DNA of 54,189 nt. Source: Escherichia coli. Its GTDB lineage: Bacteria > Pseudomonadota > Gammaproteobacteria > Enterobacterales > Enterobacteriaceae. The notes beneath the pieces were generated by a model, which did no database searches, had not been told where the DNA came from, and was given only the letters and a program-made list of their open reading frames with translations. Each line of letters starts with the position of its first letter. The first letter of the stretch is position 1. The stretch is from the NCBI RefSeq assembly GCF_003334335.1, contig NZ_QOWQ01000032.1; one strand, 5' to 3'. Of the stretch, positions 23,368 to 38,520 are shown piece by piece. The translations under genes were made by a program, and so were the position numbers.

Positions 23368-24576
23368 TCAGGCTGTCGCCTGAATCATTTCGGTGGGTTC
23401 CTGCTTCAACGGGCGGCCTGACTGCACCATCTCTCCACAGGCAAGAACGGCGTGCCCCGCCGCTAAAATGTTGCGAGCGCCATTTACATCGGCGTTCGCT
23501 GTATATCCACATACCTGGCATCTGAATTTACTTTGTGACAGGCGGTTCTCTTTCGCTGTATGACCACAGTACGCGCAACGCTGGCTTGTATACGCTGGCG
23601 GAACAGCAAGCACCTGACCGCCACGCCAGAGCTGCTTGTACGCAAGCTGGCGGCGCATTTCATACCAGCCCTGATCCAGTATCGAACGGTTTAAACCTGA
23701 TTTTGCCCGGACATTGCGCCCCGGCTGGCTGACCGTACCCGCTGCTGACTTTGACATGTTGCTGACCTTCAAATCCTCAATGACTATCATTGCGTGGTTT
23801 TTGCTGACGGCCGTTGTGACTTTGTGAAGGTAGTCCCTGCGGATATTTGCGATACAGGAATGCAGTCGCTGTATTTTGCGTTTCTGCTTTTGCCAGTTGT
23901 TGCTGAATTTGACCTTGCGGCTTAACTGTCGCTGAAGTCTCGCCAGCTTCTTCTGGTTTTTCTGAAAACTGTTTACAGGCTCAAAGACTGTGCCATCTGA
24001 CAGCGTGGCGAGTTTAGCCACGCCAGCATCCAGCCCGACCATTGATGCTGAAGGGTGAACCGGAGTTGATACTTCACTTTCTGTCTGAATACTGATGTAC
24101 CACTTACCGCAGGACTGGCTGACAGTGACATTTTTCACAACACCCGTGACCTGACGGCTGTTCCGGTAGCGCATCCAGCCCAGTTTCGGCAGAAAAATAC
24201 GGCTGTTTTCCTGATCGAGCTTAACGCCCTGCGGGTAGCGGAATGCATCATTCTGTCCCCGCTTTTTGAATCGGGGAAAAGCAGCCCGCTTCCGGAAGAA
24301 GTTTTTGTAAGCCCGCTCAAGGTCTTTCAGTGACTGTTGCAATGGCTGTGAGGGAGAATCTTTAAGCCATTGCGTTTCAGTGGCATTTTTCCACTCAACC
24401 AGCCAGGAAGCCATTTTCCCGTAAGGGATGTATTTATTACCGGCCTCATGATTCTCATTCTGACGTGCCAGAGCACGATTGAAAACGAAACGACATGCGC
24501 CTGCGAAGCGCCTCATTTCACACTCCTGTTGACCACCGGGTCTTAACTGGAATTTAAATGCCTGTAATCGTTTCAC
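23368..24576 (-). CDS. insQ: TnpB (IS605 OrfB family, RuvC-like RNA-guided nuclease)
   Basis: 402-aa ORF with RuvC-I GLDAGV, Ruv[11 protein letters not shown], zinc finger CAYCGH...CQVCGY and RuvC-III DVNGARN all present. Annotated start may be the internal Met at codon 21 (382 aa). Confidence 0.85.
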
Positions 24577-24583
24577 AGGTCAA

Positions 24584-25090
24584 ATGATACTTTGGTCTGT
24601 GAAAAAAGAAACCGATATCCGGCGTGGAAGGCATTGTGTTTTCCTGATGCATGTTCACCTGCTCTTTGTCACCAGATACCGACGCCAGATTTTTGACCAT
24701 GACGCGACAGAAAAACTACGCACTTACTTTTCAAATGTATGTGCTGATTTTGAAGCTGAACTGGTTGAAATGGATGGCGAACCAGATCACGTCCATTTGT
24801 TAATTAACTATCCTCCCAAACTGGCGATATCCAGTCTGGTAAACAGCCTCAAAGGCGTATCGGGTAGGTGACTGCGACGAGATCGACCAGATATTGCATT
24901 CAGGTATTACTACAAAGGCGTTTTGTGGAGTCCTGGCTATTTTGCCAGTAGCTGCGGAGGTGCGCCAATATCCGTCATCCGCCAATACATTGAACAACAG
25001 CAAACACCTGGTCAGGTGGAAAACCGCGCCTTATATCCCCGCCCTGAAGGATGGGGTTTTACGGCGCACCGGATAAAAAGCGCCATCTAA
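24584..25090 (+). pseudogene. insP: IS200/IS605 TnpA (Y1 HuH transposase), frameshifted
   Basis: Frame 1 (24584-24871) encodes the HuH region (PDHVHLLINYPPK) and stops after ...KGVSGR. The C-terminal part with the catalytic Tyr (GVLWSPGYFASSCGGAPISVIRQYIEQQ) continues in the +1 frame to 25088-25090. Needs a 1-nt correction near 24869-24872. Confidence 0.7.
25037..25056. repeat. IS609 subterminal hairpin (tnpA-proximal, LE-like)
   Basis: ccccg-ccctgaagga-tgggg, with the same loop and orientation as the hairpin at 23335-23354, 1702 bp away. Confidence 0.5.
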
Positions 25091-26671: not shown

Positions 26672-27660
26672 TCTTTGTCCTCTGCTTTCATTAAAACGGC
26701 GCGCTCGGTTCTGACTAACAATTTTCCCTGCATCAGAAGCGCAAAAGTACGGATGAGCAGTATTGCAATAATAAAATTGGTAAAGATAAACAGCGGCACC
26801 GCCAGCGTATGGAAAAATCCATTATCGCTGCCACTCCCCAGATGCAAACCGGTGGTTGCCAGTGCAGATACGCCGAACGAGAAACTCCAGAATGAAGCAT
26901 TAAATGGCTGGGAGAGATACCATGGCATCAGACGTAGCATAAACAGCAGTTGCAGCAGTCCATAACCGAAAAGCATTTTCGCCAGCGTGTCACCCTCGCC
27001 GCCGTTGACGCTCAGCCAGGCACTACAAGCCACCAGCGCAGGAGCGAGCTGAATGCCGAGTGATGTCCGCAGTGCCGTGGGTAATTCTCCCGAACTGCGC
27101 AGACGCTGCAAGATCACCGGTTCAAGGCTTAGCCATGAGAAAACGCCTGCGCCTAAAAACACCAGACCGGCGTCGGTGTAGCCCAACGCACCACAGGCCA
27201 TTGCGCTGATAAAGTTGTTGGCAACTGTCGGCAGATACAGTCCAGGCGTGGTAGCTTCTTCAGGGTGAGATCCGCGCCATAATCCCGCAGTTTGCCAGGC
27301 GGCATAAGCCAACTGAACCACGACACCAAAACTGAACAGGCACACCGCCAGTGGGCGAAACCACGGAACAAAACCAATCGCCACCAGCATCGTCGTTGCC
27401 GGAAACAAACTCACAAAACTGCTCAGCACTGGATGGCGAACTTCCGCCAGCACGCTATGCGGAAAGCGTATGAGTCGGGCAATAAATGCGCTAGTCAATA
27501 ATCCCCAGATGATCATCGCCAGAATCACCAGCCCATCCCCTAACCAGTGGCTGACCTGCCAAACCTGGCTGGCATAGCGCCAGGCAAATCCCATCCCTAT
27601 CGTCCCCAACACAATACCAAAGTAGCCTGCCGGCAAATTGAGCACTTTATCGCTCTGCAT
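26668..27660 (-). CDS. tehA: tellurite resistance / dicarboxylate-type membrane transporter
   Basis: Track ORF is over-extended by 36 codons. ATG at 27658-27660 gives [14 protein letters not shown]... of 330 aa, 10-TM. Confidence 0.9.
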
Positions 27661-27783
27661 CTTCTTACTCATTTTGTTTAATTTATAAAGTATATTTGAA
27701 ATGCATTTTATGGAATTTTCTCGAGCATAGCCAGAGCCGCAGAATTTGCTACGGTTATAGTAAGTCACCTGTGGGAAAACGCT

Positions 27784-28764
27784 ATGCGCAAATATCGTCT
27801 AAGTGAAGAACAGCGAGCCTTTAGTTATCAGGAAGATGGCACTAAAAAAAATGTGTTATTACGGCAGATTATCGCCATTAGCGATTTTAACGATGTGATA
27901 GCAGGAACCGCTGGCGGCTGGATCGATCGCGAAACGGTGTTAGCACAAGAAGGAAATTGCTGGATTTACGACCAGAATGCTATTGCGTTCGGCGGAGCGG
28001 TGATTTCCGGTAATACGCGTATCACCGGCACCAGCGTGCTGTGGGGAGAGGTTTACGCAACGGATAACGTCTGGATCGATAATAGTGAAATCAGCCAGGG
28101 TGCATATATAAGTGACAGCGTCACCATTCATGACTCATTAGTTTACGGGCAATGTAGAATATTTGGTCACGCCTTAATTGATCAACATTCTATGATCGTC
28201 GCCGCACAAGGCTTAACGCCCGACCATCAACTCCTGCTCCAAATTTATGATCGCGCAAGGGTTAGCGCCTCGCGTATTGTCCACCAGGCACAAATTTATG
28301 GCGATGCCGTCGTCCGGTATGCTTTTATTGAACATCGCGCCGAAGTTTTTGATTTTGCCAGTATTGAAGGTAATGAAGAGAACAATGTCTGGCTATGCGA
28401 TTGCGCTAAAGTCTACGGTCACGCGCAGGTGAAAGCTGGCATAGAAGAAGATGCCATTCCGACGATTCATTACAGTTCGCAGGTGGCGGAATATGCCATT
28501 GTGGAAGGTAATTGTGTGTTAAAACATCATGTCTTGGTTGGCGGAAATGCCGTGGTACGTGGCGGACCGATTCTGCTCGACGAGCACGTTGTCATACAAG
28601 GTGAGAGCCGTATTACAGGTGCGGTGATAATTGAAAACCATGTGGAGTTAACCGACCACGCCGTCGTTGAAGCCTTTGATGGCGACACGGTTCATGTCCG
28701 TGGTCCAAAAGTCATTAACGGCGAGGAGCGCATTACGCGAACGCCGCTGGCAGGGTTATTGTGA
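27784..28764 (+). CDS. ydcK: left-handed beta-helix (hexapeptide-repeat) protein
   Basis: 326-aa ORF with repeated hexapeptide-like motifs. Matches YdcK. Confidence 0.85.
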
Positions 28765-29295
28765 ATCGATAATACGCGCGTATAAGTTCACATCATCATA
28801 GGCATCATTCAGGAACTCAGCCTGTTTCAGGCAACCTTCAAGGATAAAACCATTGCGCAAAGCGACCTGGTTGCTTTGCGGATTGTCCACCCGACATTTG
28901 ATCACGAAGCGTCTAAGTTCACCAGACTGGGCGTAATGATGAATCAATGCCTGCAGCGCCTGAGAAATGATCCCCTGCCCCTGATGAGATTCGTCCAGCC
29001 AGTAGCCTATTTCAGCGGTTTTATTCAGTGGTTCAATACGATTAAACGAGATAACGCCGATAAGTTCATCTTCTTTGAAAATCATGAACATTTTGGCATA
29101 GCCGCGTTGATGCAACATCACATTACCCTGCACCGTTTTTCGCGTGTCCTCTTCACTTTGAACAAACTGCGGCCAGTTTAGCGACTGCTGTAACCAGGTT
29201 TTATTTTTACAGATTAACTGATAAAGAGGTTTGACGTGATTTTCTGCAACAGCATGTAATTCAAGTGATTCGCTTACTTTTATCGTTTCAGTCAT
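28756..29295 (-). CDS. rimL: ribosomal-protein L7/L12 serine N-acetyltransferase (GNAT)
   Basis: Track ORF starts at a TTG at 29310. ATG at 29295 gives MTETIKVSE... of 179 aa matching RimL. 3' end overlaps the ydcK 3' end by 9 bp. Confidence 0.85.
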
Positions 29296-29324
29296 CTTAT
29301 CTCCAGTCAATCCATGCAGTTGTT

Positions 29325-29349
29325 AAAAAAGCCGCCTGGCTGGCGGCTT
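29325..29349 (-). terminator. intrinsic terminator of ydcH
   Basis: Minus strand reads aagccgcc-agcca-ggcggctt followed by tttttt. Confidence 0.5.
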
Positions 29350-29357
29350 AGGAAAGT

Positions 29358-29582
29358 TTACACCTCTTTGACGCTCTCCTGCTGCAGGATTTTGAGCATC
29401 TCATCTTTTAACTGTAGCTTTTGTTTTTTCATGCGGACCACTTCCGCATTGTACCCTCGACCGTCGGAACCTTCCTTTCTGGCAATTTCATGATCAAGTT
29501 TATTGTGTTTATCGAACAAGGACATAAAGCGAGGATTTTCGTTTTTCAGACGGGATATTAAATCTCGGTATTCTGGAAACAT
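29358..29582 (-). CDS. ydcH: small DUF465 protein
   Basis: ATG at 29580-29582 gives MFPEYRDLISRLKNENPRF... of 74 aa. Track ORF is extended by 2 codons from a GTG. Confidence 0.8.
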   Translation of the reverse strand: MFPEYRDLISRLKNENPRFMSLFDKHNKLDHEIARKEGSDGRGYNAEVVRMKKQKLQLKDEMLKILQQESVKEV

Positions 29583-29685
29583 ACGCACTCCCTGTTAGTG
29601 GCTGACAAGGTGTATCTGAAATACACACCATCAGATTACTCATTTAACTTAGGGAAAAATGCGAGCGGGATCGTGTTTAACCAGA

Positions 29686-29718
29686 CGGCACCTCCCGAAG
29701 AAGGTGCCGAAGAAAAAA
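29686..29718 (-). terminator. intrinsic terminator of opgD
   Basis: Stem cggcacc / ggtgccg with a 10-nt loop, followed on the minus strand by a U-run (plus-strand aagaaaaaa). Confidence 0.5.
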
Positions 29719-29721
29719 CGA

Positions 29722-31377
29722 TTAACTCATCACGCGGTCGTCAACATACTGACGTTTATCCGGCGCTGGCGGGAAATACTGATACAGCCATGTTTCACTG
29801 ATAGCGTCCCCCTGACAACGTAGATACATCCGCATATCGACCGGATCAGTGGAGTCCGAAGTCGGATACCAGTCAAACTGAATACGATAACCATCGATGG
29901 GTTCAATATAGAGAATTTCGATTTGCTTCGCTTCCCCACTGGAAAGCGTAATCACCGGCTCAATGCCTTTTGGCGCGGCAGCTTTCAGATCACCACCAAC
30001 GAAATCGACGGCAAAACGACGCGCCCATTTTTCGGGATAGTGTTCACCTGGCGCCCAACCTTCCGAGAAACCGCCCATGCCGGTACGCGTCGCCATAACG
30101 CGCGCTAATGGGCAATGAACAGGCGGTTGCGCACTCCAGTACAGACGATACTGGAATGCAAACTCATCACCTGCTTTTACAGCTTTTTCTGGCTGCCAGA
30201 AGCAGACAATGTTATCCAGCGTTTCGCCCGTTGTTGGGATTTCCATCAGGCCGATGGTGCCCTTACCCCACTTGTTACGCGGTTCCACCCACAGACTTGG
30301 GCGTTTGTTATACCAGCCCATAATGTCCTGATAATGGGAGAAGTCACGATCCAGTTGCAATAAACCAAACCCTTTCGGGTTGTTGTCGGTGTAAGCATTG
30401 AACTGCAATTTTTGCGGATTATTCAGCGGACGGCAAATCCACTCGCCGTTGCCCCGCCACATGGACAGACGATCAGAGTCATGAATTTGCGGATGAATTG
30501 TATCGCACATCCGACGTTCATTAGTACCGCAGCTGAACATACTGGTCATCGGCGCAATGCCCAGCTGTTTAATGTCTTTGCGCGCATACAGGTGATTTTC
30601 CACATCCATAATCACCTGACTTTTCTCACAATGGATAGTGAACTTATAGGCACCAGTAATGCTGGCGCTATCGAGCAACGCATAAACGGTAAAGGTAGTT
30701 GCCCCCGGTTTTACCGTATCAAACCAGAAGGCGGTAAAGTCGGGGAACTCTTCTTTACTGTCGGTGTAAGTGTCGATCGCCAGGCCGCGGGCCGACAAAC
30801 CGTATTGATATGTATCATCAACGGCGCGGAAATAACTCGCGCCGAGAAATGATACTACATCACGGCGCGCCAGTTCGGGGGCTTTAAACACGCGAAAACC
30901 GGCAAAGCCGAGATCGCTTTGCCCTTCTAATTGTTTTGTATCAACACCTGCATCGTTGTATTTGAACAACTCCGGGCGAAAGTGAATTTCACGCGCCAGA
31001 TGTGTTGCTGGATCTACAGAAAACATACGAACGCGGCGACGGAATCCCATTCCCATATGGAAGAACTGAGCGTCCAGTTGACGGTTCTCAACGTTATGCC
31101 AGAGCGATTTTTCGGCGTCGTATTGAATACTGTTATAAGCCTGCGGCGTCATTGTCGCCAGCGTGTCAGGTAACGGACGAGGCGCACCACGCCACGCTGT
31201 TTGCGCTAAGTCGTGCGCCATTGACTGTAGAATGGAGAAGTCAAAACGCTGGGTTTGCCCGTCGGCAATATCAGAATCTGCCGCGAATGCCGCCTGAGAA
31301 AAAAGAGAAGCAATGCCGCTGGTACCGCACACGGCGGCCATAGCCATTGAACCTTTAATAAATCGTCTACGATCCAT
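29722..31377 (-). CDS. opgD: osmoregulated periplasmic glucans biosynthesis protein D (Tat-exported)
   Basis: 551-aa ORF with twin-arginine signal [23 protein letters not shown]. Matches OpgD/MdoD. Confidence 0.9.
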
Positions 31378-35829: not shown

Positions 35830-36039
35830 TGACCAAAAACCTCTTTGCGTCACATTTTTACAACAATTATTGCATAGAAAATTAATGCTATTGGAATGAA
35901 GAGAGTAACGAATGGCTAAACTGGCTAACCCGAATGACGAAAAATTCTGGAAAACAGCACGCAATTTCGTGAAGTGATTATTTTCGTCCCTAAGGAAACC
36001 TTATAGGATGCCTGCGGGTGCCTGAGACTTTCTGTTTTC

Positions 36040-36103
36040 AGGCTAACCGGGAATCAGAAAGACGAAGGCCCCGACCGATATTTCTATCAACCGAGGCCAA
36101 CGA

Positions 36104-36130
<27 letters not shown>
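36040..36130 (-). ncRNA. sokB: expected SokB antisense RNA overlapping the mokB/hokB leader (boundaries approximate)
   Basis: Inferred from hok/sok family architecture. Not independently delimited from sequence. Confidence 0.3.
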
Positions 36131-36311
<181 letters not shown>

Positions 36312-36317
36312 GGGCAA

Positions 36318-36342
36318 GCGCGGGGATTTTCCCCGCGCATTT
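36318..36342 (+). terminator. intrinsic terminator after hokB
   Basis: gcgcgggg-atttt-ccccgcgc followed by attt. Confidence 0.5.
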
Positions 36343-36382
36343 GACTAGCAGATTCATTTTCTCATGGCACCCCTTTTACACT

Positions 36383-36726: not shown

Positions 36727-36790
36727 CTTCCGATGTAGACCCGTATTCTTCGCCTGTACCACGGGTCGGTTTTAGTACAGGCGTTTTCTT
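36727..36790 (+). ncRNA. rydC: RydC Hfq-binding small RNA (64 nt)
   Basis: cttccgatgtagacccgtattcttcgcctgtaccacgggtcggttttagtacaggcgttttctt matches RydC as I recall it. Pseudoknot-capable pairs gacccg/cgggtc and cgcctgtac/gtacaggcg, U-tract terminator, and tataat -10 element 6 nt upstream at 36716-36721. Confidence 0.8.

Positions 36791-37507: not shown

Positions 37508-38520
<1,013 letters not shown>

Follow-up and report, generated by a model that had tools for sequence, protein, structure and literature searches.

The ydcK/rimL junction of Escherichia coli: an ordinary 9-bp convergent overlap that is very probably a product of compact packing

Ju and colleagues reportedly described in 2019 bidirectional intrinsic terminators that lie between convergent genes, and Peters and colleagues are said to have found in 2012 that Rho-dependent terminators can be located antisense within the downstream convergent gene. 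The junction of ydcK and rimL in Escherichia coli resembles the pairs of the former study in that the two genes converge and have their ends very close to each other, unlike those pairs, though, it carries no element of A-tract, hairpin and U-tract, which we looked for and found to be absent. For convergent genes with overlapping coding sequences, Lillo and Krakauer counted 58 cases in E. coli and found a predicted intrinsic terminator in only 20% of the genes involved (2007, PMC2174442). Like the pairs of that survey, ydcK and rimL are two real genes on opposite strands that have a few 3' bases in common and stop codons that are antisense of leucine or serine codons, and their phase (123:321) is the second commonest of three, accounting for 33% of convergent overlaps of at least 5 nt (PMC2174442). 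They differ from typical convergent overlaps only in the breadth of their conservation (about 20 genera) and in a clear codon signature in the last two ydcK codons. Convergent excludons, a concept from Listeria with antagonistic expression and RNase III processing as its defining traits, are opposite-strand neighbors with overlapping transcripts, and the exact pair rimL-ydcK is listed among the 165 convergent excludons of strain MG1655 by ExcludonFinder because its transcripts overlap in 50% or more of 58 RNA-seq sets from this strain (2025, PMC12288877). In contrast to other members of this group, the ydcK/rimL overlap is forced by the coding sequences and not by long untranslated regions, and it is known as a transcript overlap only. 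The locus also resembles the antisense Rho-dependent terminators of Adams et al. (2021, PMC7815308) in its sensitivity to bicyclomycin about 110 nt past the rimL stop, an RNA with more C than G and the lack of a discrete Term-seq end, a likeness that holds for the rimL direction only and comes with no defined rut site or exact release points. The pair is an ordinary member of a well-described class, and its main properties are already known: the overlap is annotated, a catalogue lists the overlap of the transcripts, and a published table contains the Rho-dependent termination of rimL.

The window that we analyzed is a stretch of 54,189 nucleotides of E. coli DNA (assembly GCF_003334335.1, contig NZ_QOWQ01000032.1). 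Its first positions (1-281) are part of a VgrG gene for type VI secretion, and the window therefore begins in accessory DNA beside the core yncH-ydc region. Further along, we noticed a frameshifted hicA toxin gene beside an intact hicB (18793-18947), an IS200/IS605 remnant in which an intact insQ of the TnpB family adjoins a truncated tnpA (23368-25009) and a frameshifted gap (gapC) gene (37520-38520). Our estimate of how frequent convergent overlaps are rests on the published count of 2007 and on the 12 convergent pairs that the window has in its first 50 kb, whose gaps measure 114, 35, 0, 96, 91, 39, 98, -9, 37, -23, 41 and 53 nt, so that two pairs overlap and one abuts without spacer. The second convergent overlap, of 23 bp, is formed by hokB (36162-36311, plus strand) and the tiny yncP (36289-36357, minus strand), a pair that is also on the published excludon list (PMC12288877). 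Moreover, ydcZ (plus strand, ending at 10373) and ydcY (minus strand, ending at 10374) converge with zero spacer and no room for an intergenic terminator.

Table 1. Features of the ydcK/rimL junction, in coordinates of the window.
Feature	Position	Strand	Basis
ydcK CDS, 326 aa, YdcK family left-handed beta-helix protein, function unknown	27784..28764	+	ORF list, RefSeq, NCBIfam, PDB, homologues
rimL CDS, 179 aa, ribosomal protein L7/L12-serine N-acetyltransferase	28756..29295	-	ORF list, RefSeq, NCBIfam, PDB
Dual-coding overlap TTATTGTGA, 9 bp; ydcK Leu-Leu-stop, rimL Ser-Gln-stop	28756..28764	both	sequence, conservation, codon enrichment
Untranslated 3' read-through of rimL transcripts, antisense to the final ~110 nt of ydcK	28646..28755	-	PMC7815308 and coordinate mapping
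Strong hairpin GCGCAAAGCGACC-UGG-UUGCUUUGCG in ydcK-sense RNA	28856..28880	+	repeat search and folding

The first-pass annotation had proposed that the two open reading frames share their last 9 bp on opposite strands, which is confirmed by the sequence and by RefSeq; both stop codons are included in the common stretch. Positions 28753-28770 of the plus strand read GGG TTA TTG TGA ATC GAT; ydcK ends there with ...AGLL-stop (TGA at 28762-28764), and rimL ends on the minus strand with ATC GAT TCA CAA TAA (...IIDSQ-stop), its TAA being the complement of the TTA at 28756-28758. The codons of the overlap are in register, with codon position 1 of the plus strand opposite position 3 of the minus strand. 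The same 9-bp overlap is found in the RefSeq/PGAP annotation of strains ET729, BL21 and K-12 MG1655, of which ET729 is 100% identical to the window with coinciding ydcK and rimL coordinates, and MG1655 carries rimL at 1498938-1499477 (plus strand) and ydcK at 1499469-1500449 (minus strand).

Both frames encode genuine proteins. The NCBIfam equivalog YdcK_fam covers positions 1-326 of 326 in YdcK and the equivalog PRK10151 covers positions 1-179 of 179 in RimL, and structures of the Salmonella proteins have been solved (YdcK, 2F9C and 2PIG; RimL, 1S7F, 1S7K and 1Z9U). In a comparison of 13 YdcK homologues with identities as low as 65%, every protein is 326 aa long and has the C-terminus RGPKVINGE-RITRTPLxGxL, conserved to the last residue. 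An annotation artefact, with one frame or end mis-called and no true overlap, could be suspected because some short overlaps are known to arise from mis-annotation, and the start of rimL is indeed ambiguous (TTG at 29310 vs. the annotated ATG at 29295), but this ambiguity lies at the 5' end of the gene and leaves the overlap at its far end unaffected. Curated models and crystal structures validate both frames end to end, and neither stop can be moved because it is fixed by its reading frame. A chance alignment of open reading frames is excluded because the overlap is conserved across the Enterobacteriaceae, where it recurs in 74 of the 76 loci with an adjacent rimL. Reassignment of a start or stop, which the first-pass annotation had named as what could remove the overlap, is therefore countered by the full-length family and structure matches, and we see practically no chance for an artefact, a reading that is already refuted. 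On the other side of ydcK, the divergently oriented tehA could be extended mechanically from its annotated start at 27660 to a GTG at 27768; this extension (27661-27768) is probably not real because it would cut the spacer between tehA and ydcK from 123 to 15 nt.

Of 5426 complete E. coli genomes, 5413 were matched by a query of 2 kb spanning the overlap, with 100% identity to ET729 and TUM12357, and as many (5413 of 5426) carry a single copy of the 100-nt junction, with an identity of at least 95% in all but one. In TUM12357 (NZ_CP134370.1), an IS1A element splits the match into two pieces and ydcK has two annotations; ydcK is insertionally disrupted in this strain and therefore dispensable. 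Across species, a scan with a YdcK profile over one genome per GTDB species returned 80 loci from roughly 20 genera of Enterobacteriaceae, including Escherichia, Citrobacter, Salmonella, Enterobacter, Kosakonia, Phytobacter, Lelliottia, Leclercia, Kluyvera, Pluralibacter, Pseudocitrobacter, Superficieibacter and Yokenella. One enterobacterial ydcK-rimL locus (L049, CACSKA010000006.1) is labelled "Chryseobacterium sp. 18061" and has almost the same layout as L058, which stems from the same project and is labelled "Citrobacter sp. 18056", and its assembly is probably mislabelled or contaminated.

For the tally of overlaps, both stops were located by script at each locus and the loci of two E. 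coli strains (L001 and L002) were added. rimL proved to be convergent and adjacent in 76 loci, two of them from these strains and the rest from other Enterobacteriaceae species. The overlap measures 9 bp in 45 loci (e.g., Escherichia and Citrobacter), 6 bp in 26 (e.g., Enterobacter, Lelliottia, Leclercia and Kluyvera), 4 bp (TTAA) in both Salmonella loci (L021 and L022) and 18 bp in one locus (L030); the two pairs without overlap have a 3-nt gap (L033) and a 281-nt spacer (L062). Altogether, there are 20 distinct overlap sequences, and each of the two genes uses all three stop codons across the loci. In five loci from some Kosakonia, Enterobacter and Huaxiibacter genomes (L035, L044, L057, L066 and L076), rimL was not matched downstream of ydcK, and YdcK ends there in isoleucine or leucine codons that are not antisense stops. 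At least two of these, L066 (CCTCTCCCCGTGCGGGGAGAGG) and L076, have a hairpin-forming sequence 3' of ydcK, and L044 has a possible REP-like sequence at this place. The junction is old and was very probably inherited from an early ancestor of the Enterobacteriaceae.

The conserved core of RimL ends with N-x-Y-A-R-I-I-D and is followed by a variable tail of two to five residues. In E. coli, the aspartate codon of this core directly abuts the ydcK stop, the subsequent serine codon TCA is antisense of the ydcK TGA and the rimL TAA is antisense of the penultimate leucine codon TTA of YdcK; in all 9- and 6-bp variants, the rimL stop is likewise antisense of a YdcK leucine or serine codon (TTA, CTA or TCA). 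These three codons make up 1.47% of ydcK codons elsewhere, yet 68 of 78 loci have one of them as the last or the penultimate codon (2.9% expected), a count that overstates the number of independent events since the loci share ancestry. At the last two positions, TTA and CTA together account for 52 of 90 leucine codons (vs. 16% elsewhere) and TCA for 16 of 20 serine codons (vs. 8% elsewhere). All three are absent from the last two ydcK codons in each of the five loci without a downstream rimL. Further upstream in ydcK, the nearest in-frame antisense stop is found at a median distance of 69 codons. We read this codon pattern as purifying selection on the last ydcK codons in their role as the rimL stop, directed against a long extension of RimL and not towards the overlap itself; the codon is kept for the stop that RimL requires at this place. 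The diversity of sequence states shows that this constraint has been satisfied repeatedly.

In a consensus scan of positions 27000-30000, neither strand showed a terminator of the hairpin-plus-U type near the junction, the only site being inside ydcK and unrelated to the junction. The hairpin at the junction itself, which contains a palindrome (28760-28792), has a dG of -6.6 kcal/mol (z -0.4) and is no better than shuffled sequence. Using RNAalifold on 22 species, we found no conserved structure past the stop in the ydcK-sense RNA (2 pairs, no covariation) or in the rimL-sense RNA (5 pairs, essentially no covariation). An intrinsic or bidirectional terminator just past the stops was rejected given that scan, fold and alignment were all negative, and a conserved RNA structure in either read-through RNA was rejected on the RNAalifold result. 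An Rfam gathering search of the whole window returned only sok (36016-36167, plus strand) and RydC (36727-36790, plus strand), both far from the ydcK/rimL junction. Since there is neither a spacer nor an intrinsic terminator, both mRNAs must continue into the neighboring gene in antisense orientation, as the first-pass annotation had anticipated, and the pair is indeed part of the published list of transcript overlaps. The same annotation had stated that neither gene has a terminator of its own, which stands insofar as the junction offers neither spacer nor intrinsic terminator but falls for rimL with its published Rho-dependent terminator inside ydcK.

The evidence for this terminator comes from the comparison of DirectRNA-seq with and without bicyclomycin by Adams et al., which was made in 800-nt windows so that positions are approximate and of low resolution (PMC7815308). 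A bicyclomycin-sensitive region of Rho-dependent termination is reported at MG1655 position 1499587 (plus strand) as "antisense ydcK", with upstream/downstream reads of 82/20 in untreated vs. 137/144 in treated cells, a Rho score of 4.31 and p of 1.5e-8 (PMC7815308, Supplementary file 2). Mapped via the MG1655 annotation, this position is 110 nt past the rimL stop and corresponds to about 28646 (minus strand) of the window; rimL has a Rho-dependent terminator that is embedded in the ydcK coding sequence. The curated Term-seq table of the same study contains no discrete 3' end between MG1655 1498878 and 1499799 (PMC7815308), which fits diffuse Rho-dependent ends and low expression. The nearest listed 3' end, at 1498877 (plus strand; about 29356, minus strand, of the window), is classified as "primary" and lies upstream of rimL, 2 nt after the stop of ydcH (PMC7815308); it has no obvious hairpin-U terminator, and the spacer between ydcH and rimL is 62 nt long. 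On the ydcK strand, neither a Rho region nor a 3' end is reported (PMC7815308), possibly since ydcK was poorly expressed in the conditions used, and we infer that the ydcK transcript undergoes Rho-dependent termination somewhere inside rimL. The supplements of SMRT-Cappable-seq mention neither ydcK nor rimL. In E. coli, the read-through RNAs of both strands have more C than G, a property that antisense RNA of coding sequences typically has and that is only weakly diagnostic; for rimL, the C/G ratio is 1.0-1.44 in 78-nt windows that begin no more than 100 nt after the stop, with values of up to 2.45 farther away from it. Across loci, C exceeds G in 59 of 73 ydcK-sense and 68 of 73 rimL-sense RNAs, as expected for the antisense of coding DNA.

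The ydcK-sense RNA contains a strong hairpin at 92-116 nt past the ydcK stop, inside the rimL codons for PQSNQVALR (Table 1), which has a dG of -18.8 kcal/mol (z -4.2) that none of 200 shuffles reached, keeping in mind that it was picked post hoc. Rho-terminated transcripts are, according to what Dar and Sorek reportedly found in 2018, often trimmed back to stems, which would count in favor of an embedded hairpin. The structure might, with low weight, be the 3'-end-protecting stem of a Rho-terminated ydcK mRNA or a product of chance. That a hairpin in the coding sequence, be it this one or the one at 28760-28792, would act as an intrinsic or bidirectional terminator or stabilize transcripts is suggested by the unusual stability of the former at about 100 nt past the ydcK stop and by the roughly 20% of E. 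coli genes in convergent overlaps with predicted intrinsic terminators within their partner (PMC2174442). However, the stable hairpin has no U-tract (its 3' sequence is GAUUGUCC), the consensus scan was negative there, and in an alignment of 22 genera or species its conservation is confined to E. coli and the nearest relatives, and covariation is absent. No Term-seq 3' end is reported at its MG1655 position (about 1499353; PMC7815308), and the junction hairpin does not stand out from shuffled sequence, so we consider such a terminator to be very improbable.

A more far-reaching alternative is that the overlap itself has been selected as a functional excludon in which convergent transcription makes the expression of ydcK and rimL mutually antagonistic, either by collision of RNA polymerases or by RNase III cleavage of the complementary 3' ends or both, which would link the acetylation of L12 to the role of YdcK. 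The listing of the pair in the MG1655 "excludome" (PMC12288877), the rimL transcripts that run about 110 nt antisense into ydcK (PMC7815308) and the retention of a spacer-free junction across about 20 genera all speak for this possibility. However, the listing is uninformative on antagonism because any expressed pair with overlapping coding sequences automatically has the overlapping transcript boundaries on which ExcludonFinder relies. Beyond coding constraints there is no conserved sequence or structure, the codon enrichment is fully explained by the requirement for a RimL stop and adjacency has been lost in several genera, with five loci lacking a downstream rimL and one having a 281-nt spacer. 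The literature that we searched contains nothing on anticorrelated expression, double-stranded RNA or RNase III cleavage for ydcK and rimL, and a search on the function of ydcK found nothing relevant. All in all, a functional excludon seems very unlikely. It is likewise quite unlikely, in a more specific form, that the zero-spacer junction is a selected convergent-transcription switch by which induction of ydcK would lower rimL and the acetylated L7 fraction of L7/L12, or the reverse, and in which the hairpin at 28856-28880 would set the 3' end of ydcK in E. coli.

We therefore favor the view that ydcK and rimL very probably form a compact tail-to-tail junction whose antisense 3' tails result from packing as a by-product. 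Between these two unrelated core genes, which are transcribed independently, all spacer DNA would have been lost, and the variable tail of RimL would run two to three codons into ydcK until a leucine or serine codon of YdcK (TTA, CTA or TCA) reads as a stop. The junction would leave no room for an intergenic hairpin terminator, and transcription would end in a Rho-dependent manner once the ribosome leaves at the stop codon, for which the published data document the case of rimL at about 110 nt into ydcK and which would apply to ydcK at some point within rimL. It counts for this packing scenario that a clear hairpin is found 3' of ydcK where rimL is absent, e.g., in L066 and L076, and it counts against it that a long-kept zero-spacer junction would also be expected from a selected regulatory coupling. 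The arrangement can be explained by packing without any regulatory function.

The finding matters little in itself and opens no new question, yet the locus could serve as a teaching case. It may also be a possible test locus for claims about excludons because the output of rimL is measurable as the ratio of L7 to L12. Above all, ydcK and rimL provide a clean textbook example of the end-to-end packing of two genes, in which the last codons of one double as the stop of its neighbor and Rho terminates transcription inside the neighboring gene.
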